Positions 4,938 through 45,944 of a stretch of 64,000 bases of DNA are shown one piece after another (the stretch's first letter is position 1; each line of letters begins with the position of its first letter). Made by a program: the position numbers and the translations under genes. Source of the DNA: Nitrospirota bacterium (GTDB lineage: Bacteria; Nitrospirota; UBA9217). The DNA lies in the NCBI GenBank assembly GCA_963740085.1, contig CAVUCU010000004.1:64001-128000 (forward strand), given 5' to 3'. A model generated the notes under the pieces. That model saw only the letters and a list, made by a program, of their open reading frames with translations, was not told the origin of the DNA and made no database searches.

Positions 4938-6122
4938 ATGAGAAAGGTTTATCTTGACCACGCGGCCACAACGCCGGTCCACCCGAAAGTTCTGGAGGCC
5001 ATGCTCCCCTATTTTTCGGCAAAGTTCGGCAATCCTTCCAACCTGCACGACGTCGGCAGAGAGGCGAAGAATGCGGTAGAAGAGGCGAGGGCCAAAACGG
5101 GGACGCTTATCGGGGCCAGGGCCGATGAAATATTCTTTACCGCGAGCGGCGCCGAGTCGAACAATTTTGCGATCAAAGGCCTGGCACAGGCGAACAGCCA
5201 GAAAGGCAAACATATTATCGTATCGCAAATAGAGCATTTTTCCGTTCTTCATCCGGCGAAAACGCTCGAGAAATCAGGCTTCACGGTCACCTATCTGCCG
5301 ACGGACAAACAGGGGCTCGTGAGCCCCGATGATGTAGCCAATGCGATCACCAAGGAGACGATTCTTGTCTCGATCATGCACGCGAACAACGAGATCGGCA
5401 CCATAGAACCGATCGAAGAGATAGGCAGGATCACCAAGGAACGGGGCGTACTGCTCCACACCGACGCGGTTGCGACAACCGGATGGATCCCGGTGGATGT
5501 AAGGACCCTGGGCGTTGATGCCCTTTCGTTCTCTGGCCACCAGTTCTACGGACCCAAGGGAGCGGCCGGGCTCTTTGTGCGCAAGGGCGTCAGGATAAAA
5601 CCGCTGATTGAAGGCGGTATTCAGGAGGACGGGAGGCGTGCGGGCACCGAGAATGTGCCCGCCATCGTGGGTCTGGGCAAGGCATCGGAGATCGCCGCGG
5701 CAGAGATCACCAGCCGGATGAGATATCTTGCCCCGCTCAGGGACCGTCTCCAGAAGGGACTCAGTGAAAAGATCGACCACCTGGTGATCAACGGCCATCC
5801 AACGAAAAGACTGCCGACTAACCTGAACATCTCACTGTGGTATGTGGAAGGCGAGTCTATGCTCCTGTTCCTGAATATGCAGGGGATCTCGGTATCGAGC
5901 GGATCGGCATGCACCTCACGTTCGCTCAAGTCGTCGCATGTGCTCACTTGTATCGGCACGGACGCTGCCGTCGCGAACGGGACACTGCTGATGTCGCTGG
6001 GGATGGGGAACACGGCGGAAGACATCGACTACGTGATAGAAACACTTCCCCCCATTGTTCACCGTCTGCGGGAGATGTCACCGCTCTATGAGGACATGAT
6101 AAAAAAAGAGAAAGGAAAATGA
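4938..6122 (+). CDS. iscS: Cysteine desulfurase IscS/NifS
   Basis: YLDHAATT, ANNEIGT, HTDA, RAGTEN, catalytic SSGSACTS. The PLP-lysine position reads SGHQFYGPKG. Confidence 0.92.
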   Translation: MRKVYLDHAATTPVHPKVLEAMLPYFSAKFGNPSNLHDVGREAKNAVEEARAKTGTLIGARADEIFFTASGAESNNFAIKGLAQANSQKGKHIIVSQIEHFSVLHPAKTLEKSGFTVTYLPTDKQGLVSPDDVANAITKETILVSIMHANNEIGTIEPIEEIGRITKERGVLLHTDAVATTGWIPVDVRTLGVDALSFSGHQFYGPKGAAGLFVRKGVRIKPLIEGGIQEDGRRAGTENVPAIVGLGKASEIAAAEITSRMRYLAPLRDRLQKGLSEKIDHLVINGHPTKRLPTNLNISLWYVEGESMLLFLNMQGISVSSGSACTSRSLKSSHVLTCIGTDAAVANGTLLMSLGMGNTAEDIDYVIETLPPIVHRLREMSPLYEDMIKKEKGK

Positions 6123-8475: not shown

Positions 8476-9381
8476 ATGTTCGGTGTTCTCCGCAGTTTGC
8501 GTGACGGGCTTGCTAAGACCAGAAAAAACTTTACGGACAAGGTCGGTTCACTGATCCTGGGCGAGAAGATCGGCGAATCGTTCCTCGACGAACTCGAGGA
8601 GGCGCTTATCGCTTCGGATGTCGGCGTCGAGACTGCGTCATTCGTCCTCAAGGACCTGAGGGAACGGTTCAAGCGCAATGAACTGTCTTCTCCCGAACAG
8701 GTAAAGGACCGGCTCAGGCAGATACTGTTTGAGATCCTCTCTGCACGGTCTCCGATATTTTCCCTTACCGCATCTCCGTCGGCGGTGCTCGTCGTTGGCG
8801 TGAACGGCACGGGCAAGACCACTACCATCGGCAAACTGGCGAACCGGCTTCAGGCAGAGGGAAAGAAAGTGATGCTTGCGGCGGCAGATACCTTCCGTGC
8901 GGCGGCATCGGAGCAGCTGTCGATATGGGGGGAGCGCGCGGGAATACCGGTAATCAAACACAAGGAAGGCGCCGACCCCAGCGCGGTGGTATTCGACGCC
9001 GTCTCGGCGGCAAAGGCCCGGGCAGTGGATGTGCTCATCGTGGATACGGCCGGAAGGCTGCACACGAAATCGAACCTCATGGAAGAACTCAAAAAAGTGC
9101 GCCGCATTCTGTCTCGCGAACTGCCGGGCGCGCCGCATGAAACCCTGCTCGTCCTCGACGGGAACACCGGTCAGAACGCACTGGTTCAGGCAAAGATGTT
9201 TCATGAGACGGTGGGCGTCACCGGCATCGTGCTCACGAAGCTGGACGGCACGTCCAAGGGCGGTATCGTCTTCGCCATTTATAAGGAGCTGTTGATCCCG
9301 GTAAAGTTTGTGGGCATTGGCGAGACCATTGAAGACCTGAAGAGCTTTGATCCAAGGGAGTTCGTGGATGCGCTCTTGTGA
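8476..9381 (+). CDS. ftsY: SRP receptor FtsY
   Basis: GVNGTGKTTT, DTFRAAA, DTAGRL, TKLDGTSKGG. Confidence 0.97.
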   Translation: MFGVLRSLRDGLAKTRKNFTDKVGSLILGEKIGESFLDELEEALIASDVGVETASFVLKDLRERFKRNELSSPEQVKDRLRQILFEILSARSPIFSLTASPSAVLVVGVNGTGKTTTIGKLANRLQAEGKKVMLAAADTFRAAASEQLSIWGERAGIPVIKHKEGADPSAVVFDAVSAAKARAVDVLIVDTAGRLHTKSNLMEELKKVRRILSRELPGAPHETLLVLDGNTGQNALVQAKMFHETVGVTGIVLTKLDGTSKGGIVFAIYKELLIPVKFVGIGETIEDLKSFDPREFVDALL

Positions 9382-9450
9382 ACAGCGCAGAGGGCAGAGA
9401 GCATAGAGCGTTGTGCAAAGAATTTAACCCTCTGCGTTTAGCCGTATGCG
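9381..9450. repeat. Heptamer-unit inverted repeat (gene-less)
   Basis: AGCGCAG AGGGCAG AGAGCAT AGAGCG ... CTCTGCG TTTAGCC GTATGCG. Confidence 0.6.
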
Positions 9451-9471
9451 CGGCTCAAATTTCGGAGAACT

Positions 9472-9901: not shown

Positions 9902-9918
9902 AGTATAAATAAAAAATG

Positions 9919-10092
9919 TCCCCTGCTTTGCCCGTGATGATGTAACTTGTTCCTCGTGAACAAAAAATTACGGGAGCTGTCACTGAAAAGGGTGTGCATG
10001 CCCAGATTGGACTGGGAAGCCTAAACTTTTAGACATGGCGCCCACCTGGTTAATCCAGGAATCAAGTTTATCCACACGGCAAAAGCGGGGGA
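9919..10092 (+). ncRNA. ssrS: 6S RNA
   Basis: Ends pair as a long rod (TCCCCTGCTTTGCCCGTG / CACGGCAAAAGCGGGGGA), ~175 nt, GGGAGC and CCCACC core, U-tail, canonical zapA-ssrS-rny synteny. Confidence 0.88.
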
Positions 10093-10542
10093 TTTTTTAA
10101 TATTTTGATTCAATAATAACGGTTTCATAATCACACGAACGCGTAGTCAGCGCGAATTCGAAAGGGGCGGGTAGTTCAGGCTCCGGCGCTTGTGATAGTG
10201 CTCAAGAAACAGCGGTTTACTGAGACGTTTTCAACGACACGAACCTAATAAACGAGTGTTCTCAGTTCCGCGACCAGATTGTTTTACCGGCATGGTAACA
10301 TAACGAGACTATGGGGATTTTTATGCATACATATATTCACCGAGAGGAAACACCAGGGAGAGATGTTCCGGAGACATTGCGCGCGAAGGTCGTTCACCAG
10401 ATGCGGTTTGCGCAATCTCCTGGAAAATCGGCAACATCCCGGATCTCCGCTCAAGTCCCCGGTCCCCTGTTGTCCTGATCTGGATCAATCCGGCCCCCTC
10501 ACTATTACAGGTCCCGTGTAAGCCCCCCCGCAGTTAAGAACG

Positions 10543-13439: not shown

Positions 13440-13540
13440 AGAAACAGGAGCCAGAAGTCAGAATTCAGGAGTCAGGAGTAAAGGGAGACACATTAAAATC
13501 TTTATTCTGGCTCCTGTCTACTGCCTCCTGACTTCTGCAT
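13440..13540. repeat. Heptamer-unit inverted repeat (gene-less)
   Basis: CAGGAGC CAGAAGT CAGAATT CAGGAGT CAGGAGT ... ATTCTGG CTCCTGT CTACTGC CTCCTGA CTTCTG. Confidence 0.85.
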
Positions 13541-13553
13541 CTAAGGGGGTTCA

Positions 13554-19764: not shown

Positions 19765-20655
19765 ATGGATATAGCATCATATCTTTCCAAAAAAAAAGCC
19801 ATCGTTGACAAGGCGCTCGATAAACTCGTTCCTTCCGCGAAGCTGTTCCCGACCTCGGTCCATGAGGCCATGCGCTACAGTCTCTTTGCCGGCGGCAAAC
19901 GGGTGCGGCCCATTATGGCCATTGCCGCTGCAGAGGCGCTCGGCGCAAGAATAAGCGGCCTGCTTCCCCTGGCAGGGTCTCTGGAACTCATTCACACGTA
20001 CTCGCTGATCCACGACGATCTTCCCGCCATGGATGATGATGATTTCAGGCGCGGGCGGCCGACCTGCCATAAGGTATTTGGCGAGGCCATTGCCATACTT
20101 GCGGGGGACGGGCTTTTGAACATGGCATTCGAAGTACTGTCCGATCCCCGCCGGATCAAAGCGGTCCCCGCGAACAGGCTCATTGCCATCATCAAAGAGA
20201 TCAGCGCTGCATCCGGCGTCCTTGGCATGGTGGGAGGGCAGGTAGTTGACATGGAGTCCGAGGGCAGGGAAATTGATTTCCCCACGCTCGAATACATCCA
20301 TACGCACAAGACCGGAGCGCTCATCCGTGCCTCGGTGCGGGTCGGCGCTGTCTATGCGAAGGCAAACGAGAAAAGGCTCAAAGACCTGACCCGGTACGGT
20401 GAGCTGGCTGGCCTCGCTTTTCAGATCGTTGATGATATCCTCGACATTACGGGTAAGCGGGAGGAGATCGGCAAGGACATCGGCAGCGACCTGAAGAAAG
20501 GCAAGAGGACCTACCCGAGCTTTTATGGTCTCGACGACTCATGCCTGAGGGCCGCCGAGGTTGCGGACAAGGCGATTTATGCCCTGCGGGACTTTGACCA
20601 TAAGGCAGACCCGCTCAGGGAATTGGCGAACTATATTGTGAAGAGAGTGAATTAA
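19765..20655 (+). CDS. ispA: Farnesyl/geranylgeranyl diphosphate synthase
   Basis: GGKRVRP, SLIHDDLPAMDDDDFRRG, GQVVD, KTGAL, FQIVDDILD. Confidence 0.95.
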   Translation: MDIASYLSKKKAIVDKALDKLVPSAKLFPTSVHEAMRYSLFAGGKRVRPIMAIAAAEALGARISGLLPLAGSLELIHTYSLIHDDLPAMDDDDFRRGRPTCHKVFGEAIAILAGDGLLNMAFEVLSDPRRIKAVPANRLIAIIKEISAASGVLGMVGGQVVDMESEGREIDFPTLEYIHTHKTGALIRASVRVGAVYAKANEKRLKDLTRYGELAGLAFQIVDDILDITGKREEIGKDIGSDLKKGKRTYPSFYGLDDSCLRAAEVADKAIYALRDFDHKADPLRELANYIVKRVN

Positions 20656-20660
20656 ATAAT

Positions 20661-20728
20661 GGTGTCAGGGTTCGGGGTCCAGGGGTCAGGTAAAACCCTG
20701 AGAACCCTGACGACTGAACCCTGAACCC
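20661..20728. repeat. Heptamer-unit inverted repeat (gene-less)
   Basis: GTCAGGG TTCGGGG TCCAGGG GTCAGG ... CCCTGAC GACTGAA CCCTGAA CCC. Confidence 0.8.
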
Positions 20729-20740
20729 AACGAGGTACTC

Positions 20741-23095: not shown

Positions 23096-23257
23096 ATGCA
23101 CAACCTCCGTGCGCAACGTTGATGACATCTGTATCTGAAAGTAGTTTAGATCAATCCGGGAGAAACATCAATAAAAAACCGATTTCGCAACGGTTGTCCG
23201 TTGACAGCCTTATCCGCTTCTGACAGGCTCATGTCACGAAGCGTATGATGCGAACTT

Positions 23258-24030
23258 ATGTTTATCGCGATGAACAAGCAGGCAAATAAAAAAACAAGCA
23301 AGATACGCATCGATCGTCTGCTCGTTGAACGGGGACTGGTGGAAAGCCGTGAACGTGCCCAGTCGCTGATCATTGCCGGTCAGGTGCTGGTGAACGAACA
23401 GAAACAGGACAAGTCGGGAGCGATGGTTCCCGAAGGTGCAGAGATCCGCATCCTCGGTGGACAGCTTCCCTACGTGAGCCGGGGTGGACTGAAGCTTGAG
23501 TCAGCATTAAAAGAATTCAAGGTGTCCGTTTCAGGTAAGACAGCCCTCGATGTGGGAGCGTCGACCGGCGGCTTTACCGACTGCCTGCTCCAGCATGGAT
23601 GCAAAAAGGTCTATGCCGTGGACGTGGGCTACGGCCAGATGGCGTGGAAGCTCAGGCAAGATCCCCGCGTGGTCGTTATCGAGCGCACCAACATTCGCAC
23701 AATGGACCCGTCGCTCATCCCGGTGCCCGTCGATATCGTGGTGATCGATGCTTCGTTCATCTCCCTCGAAAAAATCATTCCTTCCGTTCTGCGGTTTGTC
23801 GGGCCAGAATCGGAACTGATAGCGCTCATCAAGCCTCAGTTCGAAGTCGGGAAGGGGCAGGTGGGGAAGGGGGGTATCGTGCGGGATGAGGGCATGAGGA
23901 TAGCTGTTGTCGAGAAGATCGGGCTTTTTTCCACGAAACAGGTCTCAAGGTCACCGGCGTGATCCAGTCGCCGATTACCGGACAGGATGGAAATGTGGAA
24001 TATCTTCTTCACGCGTTTAAGCGTGAATAA
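23258..24030 (+). CDS. tlyA: TlyA rRNA 2'-O-methyltransferase (apparent single-base deletion near 23925-23930)
   Basis: S4 domain, YVSRGGLKL, DVGASTGGFTD, LIKPQFE. The conserved SPITGQDGNVEYL tail lies in another frame after a T6 run and stops at 24030. Confidence 0.9.
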
Positions 24031-24034
24031 GATA

Positions 24035-24067
24035 TAGTTCGGAGCAATGAGTTCGGAGTTGGGAGTT
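24035..24067. repeat. Left heptamer arm flanking the four-helix-bundle gene
   Basis: AGTTCGG AGCAATG AGTTCGG AGTTGGG AGTT. Confidence 0.85.
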
Positions 24068-24087
24068 AATATACAGGGTAGGGTGAA

Positions 24088-24445
24088 ATGCGTGACGAGC
24101 TTTTTGATTTTGAAAACCTGAAGGTTTATCAACGAGCGTTGGAATATGTTGATTTTGTCTACAGGGTTACTAAAGCCTTTCCGAAAGAGGAACTATTTTC
24201 CCTTACCGATCAGTTCGGAAGAGCTGCGACATCTATATGCCTGAACATTGCAGAAGGCAGCGGCGGGAGCAAGCCGGAGATTCAATCAATATGTAAAAAT
24301 AGCACGAAGATCGACGAGAGAATGCGTTGCGATTAGTGAGATATCTTGCAGGCAATCCTATTTTGATGAAGAAACGAAAACACAATCGAGAATGTTCTGC
24401 ACAGAAATATCGAAAATGCTGAGCGGGCTTATGAAGTCACTTTGA
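24088..24445 (+). CDS. Four-helix-bundle protein (TIGR02436 / 23S rRNA IVS protein family), frameshifted at ~24280
   Basis: FENLKVYQRA, FPKEELFSLTDQFGRAATSICLNIAEG, continuing in the next frame as FNQYVKIARRSTREC...ISKMLSGLMKSL. Confidence 0.85.
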
Positions 24446-24454
24446 AGGCAATTC

Positions 24455-24494
24455 GCTCCGAACTAATTACTCCGAACTCCCAACTCCTGACTCC
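24455..24494. repeat. Right heptamer arm (inverted) flanking the four-helix-bundle gene
   Basis: GCTCCGAACTAATTACTCCGAACTCCCAACTCCTGACTCC, complementary to 24035-24067. Confidence 0.85.
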
Positions 24495-24501
24495 CTACGC
24501 A

Positions 24502-25290
24502 TCACGCCGTTAAGCGGCCCGCGAACTCTTCCCCCAGAACCACGATCGACTCGATGTCCAGATAACGCGGCGCGGTCTTGTCCAGGAGCAGCCGGCATTG
24601 TGCGGGGAAATTATCATCAGGAACGGCATCATAGAACAGCAACAGCGCCGGATAGTGAGGGAAGAAACGGAATTCAAATGCAGCGTCGTGATTCCCTTGT
24701 ATCGTTGCTTCGTTACCACCGAACCTCAAGCATGCTTCTTTCAGCGCATCGACCTTTCCTGAAAAATGCCCGGCGATCACATCCTCAACATGGCCGGCCC
24801 AGGCCTTGTCCTTTGCGTGGGATGCAGGCACCGAGCCGAAGGTTATCCACTCTCCTGAAGGGGCCGGTGGATCAGGCATGCAAAGGTGGTTGGAGATCAG
24901 TATGGATATCCAGGGCCTCGGTTCCCTGCCTCCAGCGTCAATGATCTTCTCTTTCGTGATGAGATAATTCTCGTTCAGGAACCTGATCGCAAGCTCATCG
25001 TGACCAATGAGGGTGGCGCCGAACAGGGACGCAACTTTCTTGAAATCCAACGCACGGACCCTGGGTTGCAATGCTGCCAGTGCCTGCTCATACACGGTGC
25101 CCGGCGAGTCGCGTTGTCCAATGTCCGCCTCCCGGAGAGACACGCGCCCGGCCTCGGTCATCGAGGGGCACGCATCCGGCGATGCCTGGCCGGTTGCCAG
25201 CTTCGCGGCGAAACCGAAACAGCTTGGGAGTCCGCACCGGCCGCAATTGGTCTTCGGCAGGAGCCTGTAGATCTCGACCGCGGTCTTCAT
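24502..25290 (-). CDS. Fe-S domain plus DUF3786 protein
   Basis: LPKTNCGRCGLPSCFGFA...CP Fe-S domain; C-terminal DDNFPAQCRLLLD...LDIES. Confidence 0.85.
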   Translation of the reverse strand: MKTAVEIYRLLPKTNCGRCGLPSCFGFAAKLATGQASPDACPSMTEAGRVSLREADIGQRDSPGTVYEQALAALQPRVRALDFKKVASLFGATLIGHDELAIRFLNENYLITKEKIIDAGGREPRPWISILISNHLCMPDPPAPSGEWITFGSVPASHAKDKAWAGHVEDVIAGHFSGKVDALKEACLRFGGNEATIQGNHDAAFEFRFFPHYPALLLFYDAVPDDNFPAQCRLLLDKTAPRYLDIESIVVLGEEFAGRLTA

Positions 25291-25296
25291 GACGGT

Positions 25297-25325
25297 ACCT
25301 TACTGCCTTTTGATCTTCCTGTCAA
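25297..25325 (-). promoter_or_regulatory. sigma70 promoter, probably giving a leaderless mRNA
   Basis: Minus strand TTGACA, 17-nt spacer, TAAGGT, 6 nt, ATG. Confidence 0.65.
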
Positions 25326-25418
25326 ATGACCTGGATCATGCATCCTTCACTCTCTTGACTTCTTTCCTTTCCGTTGTTAGTATCCGTTATCCATCGTGCG
25401 CACCCAGGAGGGCCCTTC

Positions 25419-39629: not shown

Positions 39630-39712
39630 TCGTGATAGTTCTCTTTTCAGCAACTTTCTTTTCCACCTTCTCTTTTTAAGCAATCATTTCATGAAAATAT
39701 ATCAATTTGTCG

Positions 39713-39784: not shown

Positions 39785-39870
39785 TTCCCGACAACGCTAA
39801 ACCCTTCGCGAGAGGGGGACAGAAAGCTGCGGGTCTTGTACCAGCCAAGACGGCCGAGCTACCGAAGGAT
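39785..39870 (+). ncRNA. GEMM-I (c-di-GMP-I family) riboswitch, GEMM-Ib / 3',3'-cGAMP-like variant
   Basis: CGACAACGCTAAACCCTTC-GCGA-GAGGGGGACAGAAAGC...GGGTCT...AGACGGCCGAGCTACCGAA: GNRA-capped P2, GAC..AAAG junction, P3 with tetraloop receptor. Confidence 0.85.
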
Positions 39871-44132: not shown

Positions 44133-45944
44133 ATGAAAAGGGGAAGGCTGTTACTTATCACTGTTCTTCTGTCGTTTTTTACGGCGGTGTCGCTGGTTAA
44201 CTGCGGTGGAGGTGGCGGAGGAGGTGGTGGAGGTACTCCACCACCTCCCGTATCCAGTAATGCTAACCTTGCATCGCTCACTGCTTCTCATGGATTAGTG
44301 AACCCGTCTTTTGATCCCGCAACGACGGTATATGCCTCCATGTTCATTGGGCAGACGTCGATCACTATTACGCCTACAGCGGCGGATGCAGGTGCAACGA
44401 TCACGGTCAATGGGGCAGCCGTGGCATCGGGACATCAGTCTCAAGCCATTTCACTGAATCCCGGTCAGAACACGGTAACCGTTGCTGTGACTGCGGCAGA
44501 CGGGGTGACGACGAAGAACTATACGATCACCGCGAATTTGCTGTCGCAGGAAGCATACGCCAAGGCATCCAATACCGATGCACCTGATCTGTTTGGCTGG
44601 AGCGTAGCCCTATCGGGAGATACTCTCGCGGTAGGTGCAGTTTGGGAGGCGAGCAACGCTACAGGGATTGACGGTGATCAGTCTGACAATACTGAATGGC
44701 AGACCGGAGCGGTGTATGTTTTTATCCGTAGCGGATCGACGTGGACCCAGCAGGCATATATCAAGGCGTCTAACAGCGGTGGATTAGACTGGTTTGGATA
44801 CAGCATGTCCCTGGAGGGTGATACTCTCGCCGTAGGGTCTCCTTGGGAGGGCAGCAGCAACGGCAACCAGGGAGACAATAGTGCATCCGGGAGCGGGGCG
44901 GTGTATGTGTTCACCCGAAATGGTACGACCTGGACCCAGCAGGCGTATATCAAGGCATCGAACATCGATGCCGACGATAATTTCGGCTATAGCGTATCTC
45001 TCTCGGGAGACACGCTTGCCGTAGGCGCGCCTGAAGAAGACAGCAATGCTAAAGGTGTCAACGGCGACGAGAACGATAATAGTGCACCCGTGAGCGGCGC
45101 GGTGTATGTGTTCACCCGCACCGGTACGACATGGAACCAGCAGTCATATATCAAAGCATCGAATACTGATGCATATGACTGGTTTGGCTACAGCGTATCC
45201 CTCTCGGGTAATACGCTTGCTGTCGGGGCGCCTGAAGAAGCAAGCAATGCCCAAGGTATAAACGGCGACCAGGCGGATAATAGTGCAATTTATAGCGGGG
45301 CTGCATATGTGTTCATCCGGACCGGAGCGACTTGGACCCAGCAGGCGTACATCAAGGCATCGAACAGCATGGAAGGCGCCTGGTTTGGCCGGAGTCTATC
45401 TCTCTCGGGTGACACACTCGCCGTAGCGGCGCCTGATGAAAGCGGCGGTTCCACGGGGATCAATGGCGATCAGACGGTTAACGGCGCAACATCTATGAGC
45501 GGGGCGGTATATGTATTCACCCGGACCGGGGTGACCTGGACCCAGCAGGCCTATATCAAGGCATCGAATACTGGTCAAACCGATACGTTTGGCATAAGTG
45601 TGTGCCTTTCGGGTGACAGCCTCGCTGTCGGTGCTCCTAATGAAGCCAGTGTCGCAAAAGGGATCGGTGGTGATCAGGCAGATAACAGCGGGGTCGGGGC
45701 GGGAGCTGCTTATTTGTTCACCCGGACCGGCACGACCTGGACCCAGCAGGCGTATATCAAGGCATCGAACACCGATGCACGTGATACCTTTGGATTTAGT
45801 GTTGCCCTTTCAGGTGACACGCTTGCTGTTGGAGCACCTGACGAAGGCAGCAATGCTAAAGGAATCAACGGCGACCAGACGGACAACAGCGCTTTCATTA
45901 GCGGTACTGGCCAAGGGGCTGGAGCGGCATACATTTTGCGCTAG
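44133..45944 (+). CDS. Lipoprotein with cadherin-like beta-sandwich and FG-GAP (integrin-alpha-like) repeats
   Basis: Lipobox LVNC-G10; NANLASL...VTAADGVTTKNYTI; about seven FGxSVSLSGDTLAVGAP...GAVYVF...WTQQAYIKASN repeats. Confidence 0.88.
   Translation: MKRGRLLLITVLLSFFTAVSLVNCGGGGGGGGGGTPPPPVSSNANLASLTASHGLVNPSFDPATTVYASMFIGQTSITITPTAADAGATITVNGAAVASGHQSQAISLNPGQNTVTVAVTAADGVTTKNYTITANLLSQEAYAKASNTDAPDLFGWSVALSGDTLAVGAVWEASNATGIDGDQSDNTEWQTGAVYVFIRSGSTWTQQAYIKASNSGGLDWFGYSMSLEGDTLAVGSPWEGSSNGNQGDNSASGSGAVYVFTRNGTTWTQQAYIKASNIDADDNFGYSVSLSGDTLAVGAPEEDSNAKGVNGDENDNSAPVSGAVYVFTRTGTTWNQQSYIKASNTDAYDWFGYSVSLSGNTLAVGAPEEASNAQGINGDQADNSAIYSGAAYVFIRTGATWTQQAYIKASNSMEGAWFGRSLSLSGDTLAVAAPDESGGSTGINGDQTVNGATSMSGAVYVFTRTGVTWTQQAYIKASNTGQTDTFGISVCLSGDSLAVGAPNEASVAKGIGGDQADNSGVGAGAAYLFTRTGTTWTQQAYIKASNTDARDTFGFSVALSGDTLAVGAPDEGSNAKGINGDQTDNSAFISGTGQGAGAAYILR

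Follow-up and report, generated by a model that had tools for sequence, protein, structure and literature searches.

A four-helix-bundle gene between complementary heptamer arms downstream of tlyA in a Nitrospirota genome: an intervening-sequence-like cassette outside rRNA

The space between tlyA and a convergent DUF3786 gene in a Nitrospirota bacterium is filled by a cassette in which a gene of the S23p/Avd-like four-helix-bundle family (PF05635/TIGR02436) stands between two arms made of 7-nt units, the downstream arm being complementary to the upstream one. The stretch analysed, hereafter the window, comprises 64,000 nt (contig CAVUCU010000004.1, positions 64,001–128,000), and feature coordinates count from its start. 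Proteins of this family were first found within 23S rRNA intervening sequences (IVSs). To our knowledge, PF05635/TIGR02436 is a very large family without a known function, known mainly from rRNA IVSs and from its kinship with Avd. On balance, and with some reserve, we favour the reading that the element is a passenger cassette of the IVS type that lies outside rRNA and rides in the host transcript, its arms closing a stem. A gene of unknown function would then become a defined passenger element of transcripts, open to simple assays.

Complementary heptamer arms at the window locus

The cassette has the following parts:

24035..24067, + strand: 5′ arm, with AGTTCGG (24036–42), AGCAATG (24043–49), AGTTCGG (24050–56), AGTTGGG (24057–63) and AGTT (24064–67)
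24068..24087, + strand: spacer within the loop, with a purine-rich, putative Shine–Dalgarno-like sequence, GGGTAGGGTGA, ahead of the ATG
24088..24445, + strand: four-helix-bundle gene (PF05635/TIGR02436, S23p/Avd-like), in the pieces 24088–24336 and 24248–24445
24455..24495, + strand: 3′ arm, with CCGAACT (24458–64), AATTACT (24465–71), CCGAACT (24472–78), CCCAACT (24479–85) and CCTGACT (24486–92)

An earlier note on this DNA, made from the letters alone, had pointed to two exact pairings between the arms. Both are real: positions 24035–24045 are the exact reverse complement of 24455–24465 (pair I9), and 24055–24067 are that of 24475–24487, inside the longer pair I3 (24049–24067 / 24475–24493, 19 nt, 89%). 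They are mutually crossing, however, and represent alternative registers of the repeat rather than nested helices of one stem. The longest register, I1, joins 24036–24058 to 24456–24478 over 23 nt with 21 Watson–Crick pairs. The arms thereby form terminal inverted repeats of the IVS type, able to close a stem around the gene, and tandem heptamer units of the IVS type are likewise present in the arm; Tandem Repeats Finder reports period 7 at 24049–24067 and 24469–24495. The ungapped inverted-repeat (IR) score of 17 was matched neither by any of 500 flank shuffles nor when a gap of equal size was placed at random in the window (287 placements, the best of which scored 14). Nor did any random window placement reach a lag-7 identity of ≥0.62 on both flanks, the threshold at which we call an array. 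The complementary arms of 7-nt units are real and go beyond chance. The cassette is also comparatively AT-rich, as the note had remarked of its gene (GC 0.39–0.45 within it vs 0.55–0.58 in the flanks), and GGAGG-type sequences are found at the position of the spacer in relatives.

No transposase is encoded inside the cassette, and inspection of the sequence at the arm borders revealed no direct repeat or target-site duplication. Outside the cassette, AGTTCGGAG has just two isolated exact matches in 64 kb, and at ≤1 mismatch 21 matches vs 15.6 expected. A transposon, a miniature inverted-repeat transposable element or a mobile repeat of the REPIN type (paired repetitive extragenic palindromic, REP, sequences forming a hairpin) was rejected for want of a transposase in cis, of dispersed identical copies and of a target-site duplication. 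In systems of REPINs and their REP-associated tyrosine transposases (RAYTs), the gene stands between two copies, in opposite orientation, of a hairpin repeat that is dispersed in the genome. The cassette resembles these in having a single gene between inverted hairpin-forming repeats, with gene-less hairpins scattered intergenically; it differs from them in that its protein is no transposase and the gene-less hairpins are not copies of the arms.

Generality of the arms and placement among host genes

Relatives were collected by a single scan of 185,579 species genomes with alignment A1 as the query, which gave 80 loci. Every fetched locus was picked through its four-helix-bundle gene, and the set contains no gene-less alleles of any site. 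By eye, nearly every copy in the 80 loci is bracketed by 7-nt units with their complements downstream. Seventy-two loci were evaluable (six at contig ends and two with runs of N were left out), and the evaluable cassettes number 77 after addition of four plasmid copies. Median lag-7 identity in the 72 loci was 0.71 on each arm, vs 0.43 in 360 control placements, and medians at lags 5, 6, 8 and 9 in the same loci lay at 0.39–0.47. The IR score exceeded the 95th percentile of the controls in 52/72 loci and the 99th in 39/72. The earlier note had proposed looking for 7-nt-periodic inverted flanks around family members, and these are indeed enriched: lag-7 identity was ≥0.62 on both flanks in 38 of the 77 cassettes, vs 0 of 302 control placements. 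Compared in inverted orientation, the two arms differ by at most one mismatch in their consensus units in 26 of these 38 loci (33 of 380 for permuted pairs), and the inverted orientation fits better than the direct one in 32/38. About 30 different unit sequences occur among the loci, and a change of unit in one arm goes with a matching change in the other. Within 200 nt of family genes arrays number 1.65 per kb, compared with 0.23 per kb in the remainder of those loci.

These figures bear on the possibility that the repeats arose by neutral polymerase slippage in non-coding DNA beside an ordinary small gene, with no cassette at all. Heptanucleotides have been reported as the most frequent class of long simple repeat in many bacterial genomes, with slippage proposed to have caused them (PMC4679880, PMC4692102; works cited here by accession or DOI were available in part, and what is said of them refers to those parts). 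Unit numbers, moreover, vary between close relatives. Against slippage stand the excess of arrays beside family genes, the co-variation of the arms in unit with their predominantly inverted orientation, and the complete absence of two-flank arrays among the controls; the explanation is disfavoured, and we consider it very improbable.

The unit varies by clade. AGTTCGG-type arms occur in Nitrospirota, Thermodesulfobacteriota, Syntrophorhabdus and Scalindua, AGTCGTC/AGCTATC arms in Daviesbacteria and AGTTCTT in Bacteroidota and Omnitrophota; other units include AGACGAT/GGACGAT, AGCATAT/GGCTTAT, ATGAACG and more. Closely related genes (≥67% identity) in metagenome-assembled genomes of the first four of these groups occupy different contexts while all being bracketed by AGTTCGG-type arms, which agrees with the note's proposal of a unit without a transposase.

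The cassettes are co-oriented with host transcription. Neighbours were assigned from a crude gene call and ARAGORN, an upstream feature being counted within 400 nt. Of 81 cassettes, 64 have their nearest upstream neighbour on the same strand and 5 on the opposite one, while 12 lack such a neighbour or end at a contig border; the downstream neighbour is on the same strand in 44 and on the opposite strand in 22. When the set is collapsed to 52 distinct upstream contexts, 38 are same-strand vs 4 opposite, with 10 undetermined (p = 6e-8). A tRNA gene is the nearest neighbour in 11/81 cassettes, 6 of the 11 lying between two co-oriented tRNA genes, and the cassettes of L031, L041 and L078 lie between tRNA-Ala and the signal recognition particle (SRP) RNA. 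Stable-RNA operons other than those of rRNA thus host cassettes: between co-oriented tRNA genes at L024, L029, L039, L055, L063 and L076, between tRNA-Ala and SRP RNA at L031, L041, L078 and probably L035, and at L051, where the cassette immediately precedes a tRNA-Ser gene. Published cases include a family member between cmr3 and cmr2 (PMC3936711) and members at several 16S and 23S sites in bacteria of the Candidate Phyla Radiation (CPR; bioRxiv 10.1101/2024.02.27.582315).

In two loci the cassette splits a histidine kinase (L009, 4826–5555; L010, 1943–2609), the break falling between HATPase_c profile positions 33 and 35. The N-terminal fragment of the kinase extends into the left arm; in L009 the start of the four-helix-bundle gene overlaps the preceding stop at ATGAATGA, and in both loci the C-terminal fragment starts at a stop/start overlap, ATGACTGA, reading through the right arm. 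The flank sequence around position 5001 of L013 looks like the same split-kinase layout. Directly after the C-terminal kinase fragment of L009 there is a second, more distant four-helix-bundle gene (5586–5945; PF05635, 130.7 bits).

A tblastn search of 72,556 plasmids matched 18 records, mostly from Nostoc and Calothrix, ten of which were inspected. All ten copies have 7-nt arrays, and the downstream array is inverted in nine; that of L081, on plasmid pNPUN02 of Nostoc punctiforme PCC 73102, comprises just two units. One of the copies, L084 from a plasmid of Azospirillum lipoferum 4B, sits within a gene for 23S rRNA (2540 bits to the Rfam LSU model), and its arms consist of AGAGGAC GGATGAC AGAGGAC GGAGGAC and the complementary units. 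The window cassette is thus built like a genuine 23S rRNA IVS. In Coxiella, too, the IVS is reported to have tandem GACAGAT heptamers upstream of its S23p open reading frame (ORF); the number of heptamers differs among strains, and RNase III cleaves where the first of them begins (PMC4990558). The same work cites IVSs with S23p ORFs in Leptospira as well. On a Nostoc edaphicum plasmid (L085, 586–954) the cassette has 8 and 5 units of the GGGAGTA type and lies antisense between two ribonucleotide-reductase subunit genes, among the few opposite-strand cases; the gene on a Pseudanabaena plasmid (L083) lies between cas6 and cas4.

No rRNA gene is present in the window, where Rfam gives just a 6S RNA, a c-di-GMP riboswitch and one tRNA, so that the note's description of an IVS-like cassette outside rRNA holds: the gene belongs to PF05635/TIGR02436, and L084 has the same arms. 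The window cassette resembles the 23S rRNA IVSs in protein family, in size (about 430–460 nt), in the placement of an ORF within terminal inverted repeats, in arms of heptamer units and in its sense orientation within the host transcript. It differs from them in lying in the 3′ untranslated space of a protein-coding gene rather than in helix 25 or 45 and in its unit sequence, and its excision is something that we infer. The IVS architecture of inverted heptamer arms around the gene is, on the loci collected here, a property of the family wherever the gene sits, be it at mRNA 3′ ends, in operon spacers, in tRNA and SRP RNA operons, in cas operons or inside a histidine-kinase gene. The family, its fold, the link to Avd and the rRNA IVSs were already known, as were heptamers in one IVS arm, that of Coxiella. 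A literature search that left subscription journals mostly outside its reach found the heptamer observation for the Coxiella IVS only, and no report either of inverted heptamer arms on non-ribosomal copies across phyla or of such copies riding host transcripts.

The tlyA locus, the gene and its protein

The surroundings of the cassette are as follows:

23258..24030, + strand: host gene tlyA (TlyA-family rRNA 2′-O-methyltransferase; TIGR00478, 240.8 bits; FtsJ and S4 domains)
24000..24035, + strand: hairpin at the tlyA 3′ end, abutting the 5′ arm (pair I4, 24000–24014 / 24021–24035, 15 nt, 93% complementary)
24502..25290, − strand: convergent DUF3786 gene with an Fe–S motif, the right border of the intergenic space filled by the cassette

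The gene order is dxs, DUF2845, tlyA (+), cassette (+), DUF3786 (−), hemerythrin and a 1509-residue histidine kinase, tlyA being the upstream, co-oriented transcription unit of the cassette. Neither a promoter-like nor a terminator-like site was found inside the cassette, and the sole + strand promoter-like site ahead of it in 23200–25400 is at 23220–23249, preceding tlyA. The synteny from dxs through DUF2845, tlyA, cassette and DUF3786 to hemerythrin is shared by five Nitrospirota relatives. Identities to the window of the four-helix-bundle protein, TlyA and Dxs, respectively, are 88, 85 and 92% in L001; 80, 73 and 83% in L002; 69, 68 and 78% in L015; 64 (a frameshifted copy), 85 and 92% in L023; and 85–90, 72 and 84% in L038, the four-helix-bundle identity tracking that of TlyA across the five. 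The shared synteny and these identities show that the cassette has been inherited vertically at the tlyA locus. The arms are much less stable than the gene among these orthologues: the left arm of L001 has about 35 more bases than that of the window, and the right arm is about 40 bases in L023 and the window. The hairpin at the end of tlyA is retained, with a different sequence, in L001, L015 and L023. A hairpin just upstream of the 5′ arm was considered as a general insertion target and rejected, the effect being weak (median −7.65 vs −7.0 kcal/mol); 11 of 68 fall below the control 10th percentile (p = 0.02), and the hairpin holds at the tlyA and histidine-kinase loci, not generally.

The enclosed gene had been described as a single ORF of about 360 nt of the TIGR02436 type. 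The family is right, but the gene is read in two frames and has no intact ORF of about 118 codons. The N-terminal piece (24088–24336, 82 aa) covers PF05635 profile positions 1–54 and scores 66.2 bits against PF05635 (cut-off 33.8) and 56.3 against TIGR02436 (cut-off 24). The C-terminal piece (24248–24445, 65 aa, +1 frame) covers profile positions 54–106, with 33.7 bits against TIGR02436, above the cut-off, and 31.6 against PF05635, slightly below the cut-off when taken alone. DNA alignment with two orthologues (L001, L023) locates a single extra A near 24280, between GAG (24277–24279) and TTC (24281–24283), where aligned homologues run intact through KPEFNQY. Read with one four-letter step, the gene encodes 118 residues that are 94% identical to intact 118-residue proteins, and the product had 694 matches at E ≤1e-3 among 697 candidates in a large protein collection.

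The one-base insertion makes the window copy either a very recent pseudogene or the victim of an assembly error. An error is possible because tlyA is likewise frameshifted, in a T6 run near 23925 (23915–23935), so that its last 40 residues are in another frame ending at TAA 24028–24030, while tlyA is a single intact frame in the five relatives; this shift may point to indel errors in the assembly. Both halves of the gene have a dN of about 0.10 to L002 (dS saturated or 1.9), and the break is therefore recent or artefactual. Ratios of dN to dS of 0.04–0.12, where dS could be estimated, show that the protein is under purifying selection. A programmed frameshift was rejected: relatives read through the site in frame, and other split copies (L017, L019, L020, L023, L038, L051) break elsewhere. 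In these six the gene is split into two or three frames, in long-read and short-read assemblies alike. Gene decay may be common in the family, as reported for Coxiella (PMC4990558). A profile search in six frames found no second family copy in the window, and none of 50,697 phage records was matched at E ≤1e-6 when the intact homologue P0002 served as tblastn query.

The AlphaFold model of the read-through protein has four helices, with a mean confidence (pLDDT) of 86.6, and superimposes on the crystallised S23p-family member XCC0516 (2GSC) with a template-modelling (TM) score of 0.88 and on BT_0352 (2RLD) with 0.81; the sequence also matches 2GSC (E 8.8e-16). The solved relatives have 5 chains per structure entry. 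The residues R45, S49, N53 and E56, which belong to the conserved family motif RxxxSxxxNxxE (PMC3936711), are invariant in alignment A1. By analogy with XCC0516 and Avd, the protein is probably a nucleic-acid-binding pentamer.

The kinship with Avd, which has been stated for the family (PMC10053308) and had been mentioned in the note, is borne out by the model, with TM scores of 0.75–0.83 to Avd chains (4DWL, 8UB7). Together with a weak match to NF033474 (E 0.008), it raises the possibility that the locus is the remnant of a diversity-generating retroelement (DGR) and the gene its Avd. The window protein shares the four-helix-bundle fold, yet its score of 16.4 bits against NF033474 is far under the equivalog cut-off of 80; neither a reverse transcriptase nor a template/variable repeat pair is found in the adjoining genes (tlyA, DUF3786), and these neighbours are kept in the five relatives. 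A DGR origin is accordingly extremely improbable.

Probable pairing in RNA, possible recognition in DNA, and the gene-less hairpins

In the mechanism that we favour, the cassette, made up of the 5′ heptamer arm, a putative ribosome-binding site, the four-helix-bundle (S23p/Avd-like) gene and the complementary 3′ arm and lacking a promoter of its own, would be transcribed by read-through from tlyA. The arms would pair in the transcript in several registers, the best being I1, and the resulting stem would loop out the gene, its double-stranded length fitting cutting by RNase III. RNase III probably cuts this stem of ~23 bp; we infer such cleavage, as well as pairing in vivo and a role of the protein. 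Cleavage, or the closed stem by itself, would separate the passenger from the host RNA and leave a passenger mRNA with paired ends. Repetition of 7-nt units would allow units to be gained or lost without loss of complementarity, making the stem tolerant of slippage; this might explain why arm length varies greatly among orthologues while the gene is conserved. The duplex energy of 100-nt flanks carries little information on the stem, the controls being GC-rich: its median is −47.4 in cassettes vs −37.7 in controls, and only 14 of 77 cassettes lie below the control 5th percentile.

Several observations weigh against this mechanism. At the tlyA locus itself the gene of the window is broken, the whole-cassette fold is ordinary (z = −1.44, with 7/100 shuffles folding equally well), and the right arm of L001 is reduced to one unit (about 9 nt), so that a long stem is not conserved there. 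Across the family, the best arm pairings of 53 loci show no sense-strand wobble bias, with 34 G–U vs 43 A–C pairs (beside 110 transversion-type mismatches and 1169 Watson–Crick pairs). In 6 of 38 loci the downstream array is nearer to the direct than to the inverted orientation, and L083 has outright direct arrays, with 14 AGCTAAA units (about 1385–1490) and at least 9 AGCCAAA units (1858–1960). The Daviesbacteria-type copies (L025–L028, L030, L032, L034) have the same unit order on both arms instead of a mirrored one; just their CAG/CTG cores can pair, and their IR scores are 8–13. Finally, the arms of L009 and L010 are translated as part of the split histidine kinase.

A serious rival is that the arms act as DNA, either marking the termini of a mobile unit, where they would serve in recombination or integration, or forming arrays of binding sites for a pentameric four-helix-bundle protein; the complementarity would then reflect the two-fold symmetry of DNA recognition rather than RNA pairing. 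The missing G–U bias and the existence of direct-orientation arrays (L083) would be consistent with this, as would the fact that the arms accompany the gene across phyla and 52 contexts and into unrelated sites, including cas operons (PMC3936711), CPR 16S and 23S genes (bioRxiv 10.1101/2024.02.27.582315) and a histidine-kinase gene. Arrays are, in addition, usually of 3–5 units, while solved relatives have five chains per entry. On the other hand, the window cassette and its neighbours encode no recombinase, reverse transcriptase or nuclease, there is no sign of a target-site duplication, and a role in DNA alone does not predict the co-orientation bias with host transcription, unless expression alone selects it. 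The rRNA copies, moreover, are cut in the arm by RNase III (PMC4990558). We therefore regard a DNA-level role of the arms as possible, although unlikely, and retain the stem in the host transcript as the favoured reading.

The earlier note had further taken the cassette for the gene-carrying form of empty elements nearby. Nine period-7 arrays occur in the window vs 0–2 in five shuffles, and four gene-less hairpins with arms of 7-nt units exactly occupy gaps between co-directional genes:

1868–1966: gene-less hairpin, z −3.3
9378–9452: gene-less hairpin, z −2.6
13440–13545: gene-less hairpin, z −5.1
20655–20738: gene-less hairpin, z −4.3

Their units are AGTCAGG, AGTAGTC, GTCAGGG and GCAGAGA, each hairpin having its own. 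If the arms belonged to the target, the gene would have been inserted into the loop of such a pre-existing heptamer hairpin. This is suggested by the hairpins themselves (z −2.6 to −5.1), by the fact that those at 13445 and 1880 have the unit AGTCAGG, whose complement, CCTGACT, stands outermost in the 3′ arm of the cassette, and by gene-less arrays across the loci, 28 of 127 of which lie within one mismatch of the arm unit at their locus, vs 40 of 635 against the arms of other loci. Apart from that outermost right unit, however, none of the gene-less arrays in the window comes within one mismatch of the arm units, and no AGTTCGG array without a gene exists in the 64 kb. Arm units follow the clade of the gene, not the host, AGTTCGG-type arms occurring in four phyla and AGTCGTC/AGCTATC arms in seven different Daviesbacteria contexts; and rRNA helix 45 is not heptameric, yet the IVS there has heptamers. 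The hairpin upstream of dxs keeps its position in the five relatives with a different sequence, and being fixed in place while its sequence turns over, it makes the gene-less hairpins look like resident intercistronic structures. We thus find this origin of the arms improbable. The 7-nt hairpin architecture is shared, but the units differ, and the link between the cassette and the nearby gene-less hairpins is weak. On plasmids, the GGGAACA arm unit is absent from all 11 arrays that lie apart from the cassette in a 50-kb stretch from Nostoc, and a 50-kb stretch from Calothrix has a single distant array with the arm unit.

The cassettes nevertheless tie the family to the old and unexplained excess of heptanucleotide repeats in bacteria. 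One such array is the STRR (short tandemly repeated repetitive) sequence of Calothrix. Others are the GGGAATC arrays of Xanthomonas and GGGGAYT arrays of Nostoc (PMC4692102), the TAACTGA arrays of Beggiatoaceae and cyanobacteria (PMC4679880) and the MTYCTGA and GGACCGG elements of Geobacter (PMC2700814). The gene-less hairpins of the window resemble these in being intergenic tandem 7-nt units, often in inverted pairs, and the hairpin at 13445–13540 carries a unit of the Geobacter MTYCTGA type. Unlike the cassette, the published arrays are mostly without a gene, and in the available parts of PMC2700814, PMC4679880 and PMC4692102 they are not tied to the S23p/four-helix-bundle family. In Xanthomonas campestris ATCC 33913, a four-unit GGGAATC array (622956–622983; PMC4692102 supplement, no. 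15) overlaps the start of XCC0516; it lies 6 nt after bccP, on the same strand, and is one of 186 such arrays in that genome (PMC4692102).

One may speculate, although we hold it to be doubtful, that PF05635 proteins and heptanucleotide hairpins together make up a single widespread system. The protein, as a pentameric ring that binds nucleic acid, would then act in trans on heptamer arrays, binding, protecting or propagating them, and the gene would travel with one array on either side, in the way that a RAYT gene stands between REP sequences. Such a system would provide a role for a very large family that lacks one and would account for 7-nt repeats being the most frequent long simple repeats in many bacterial genomes, from the STRR, GGGAATC and TAACTGA arrays to the Geobacter elements.

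Among the other features of the window, the 6S RNA lies at 9917–10095, and the riboswitch, of the c-di-GMP-I-GGC class, at 39787–39867, with 15-nt repeats before it at 39639–39676. Five copies of a 201-nt tandem repeat occupy 44890–45892.

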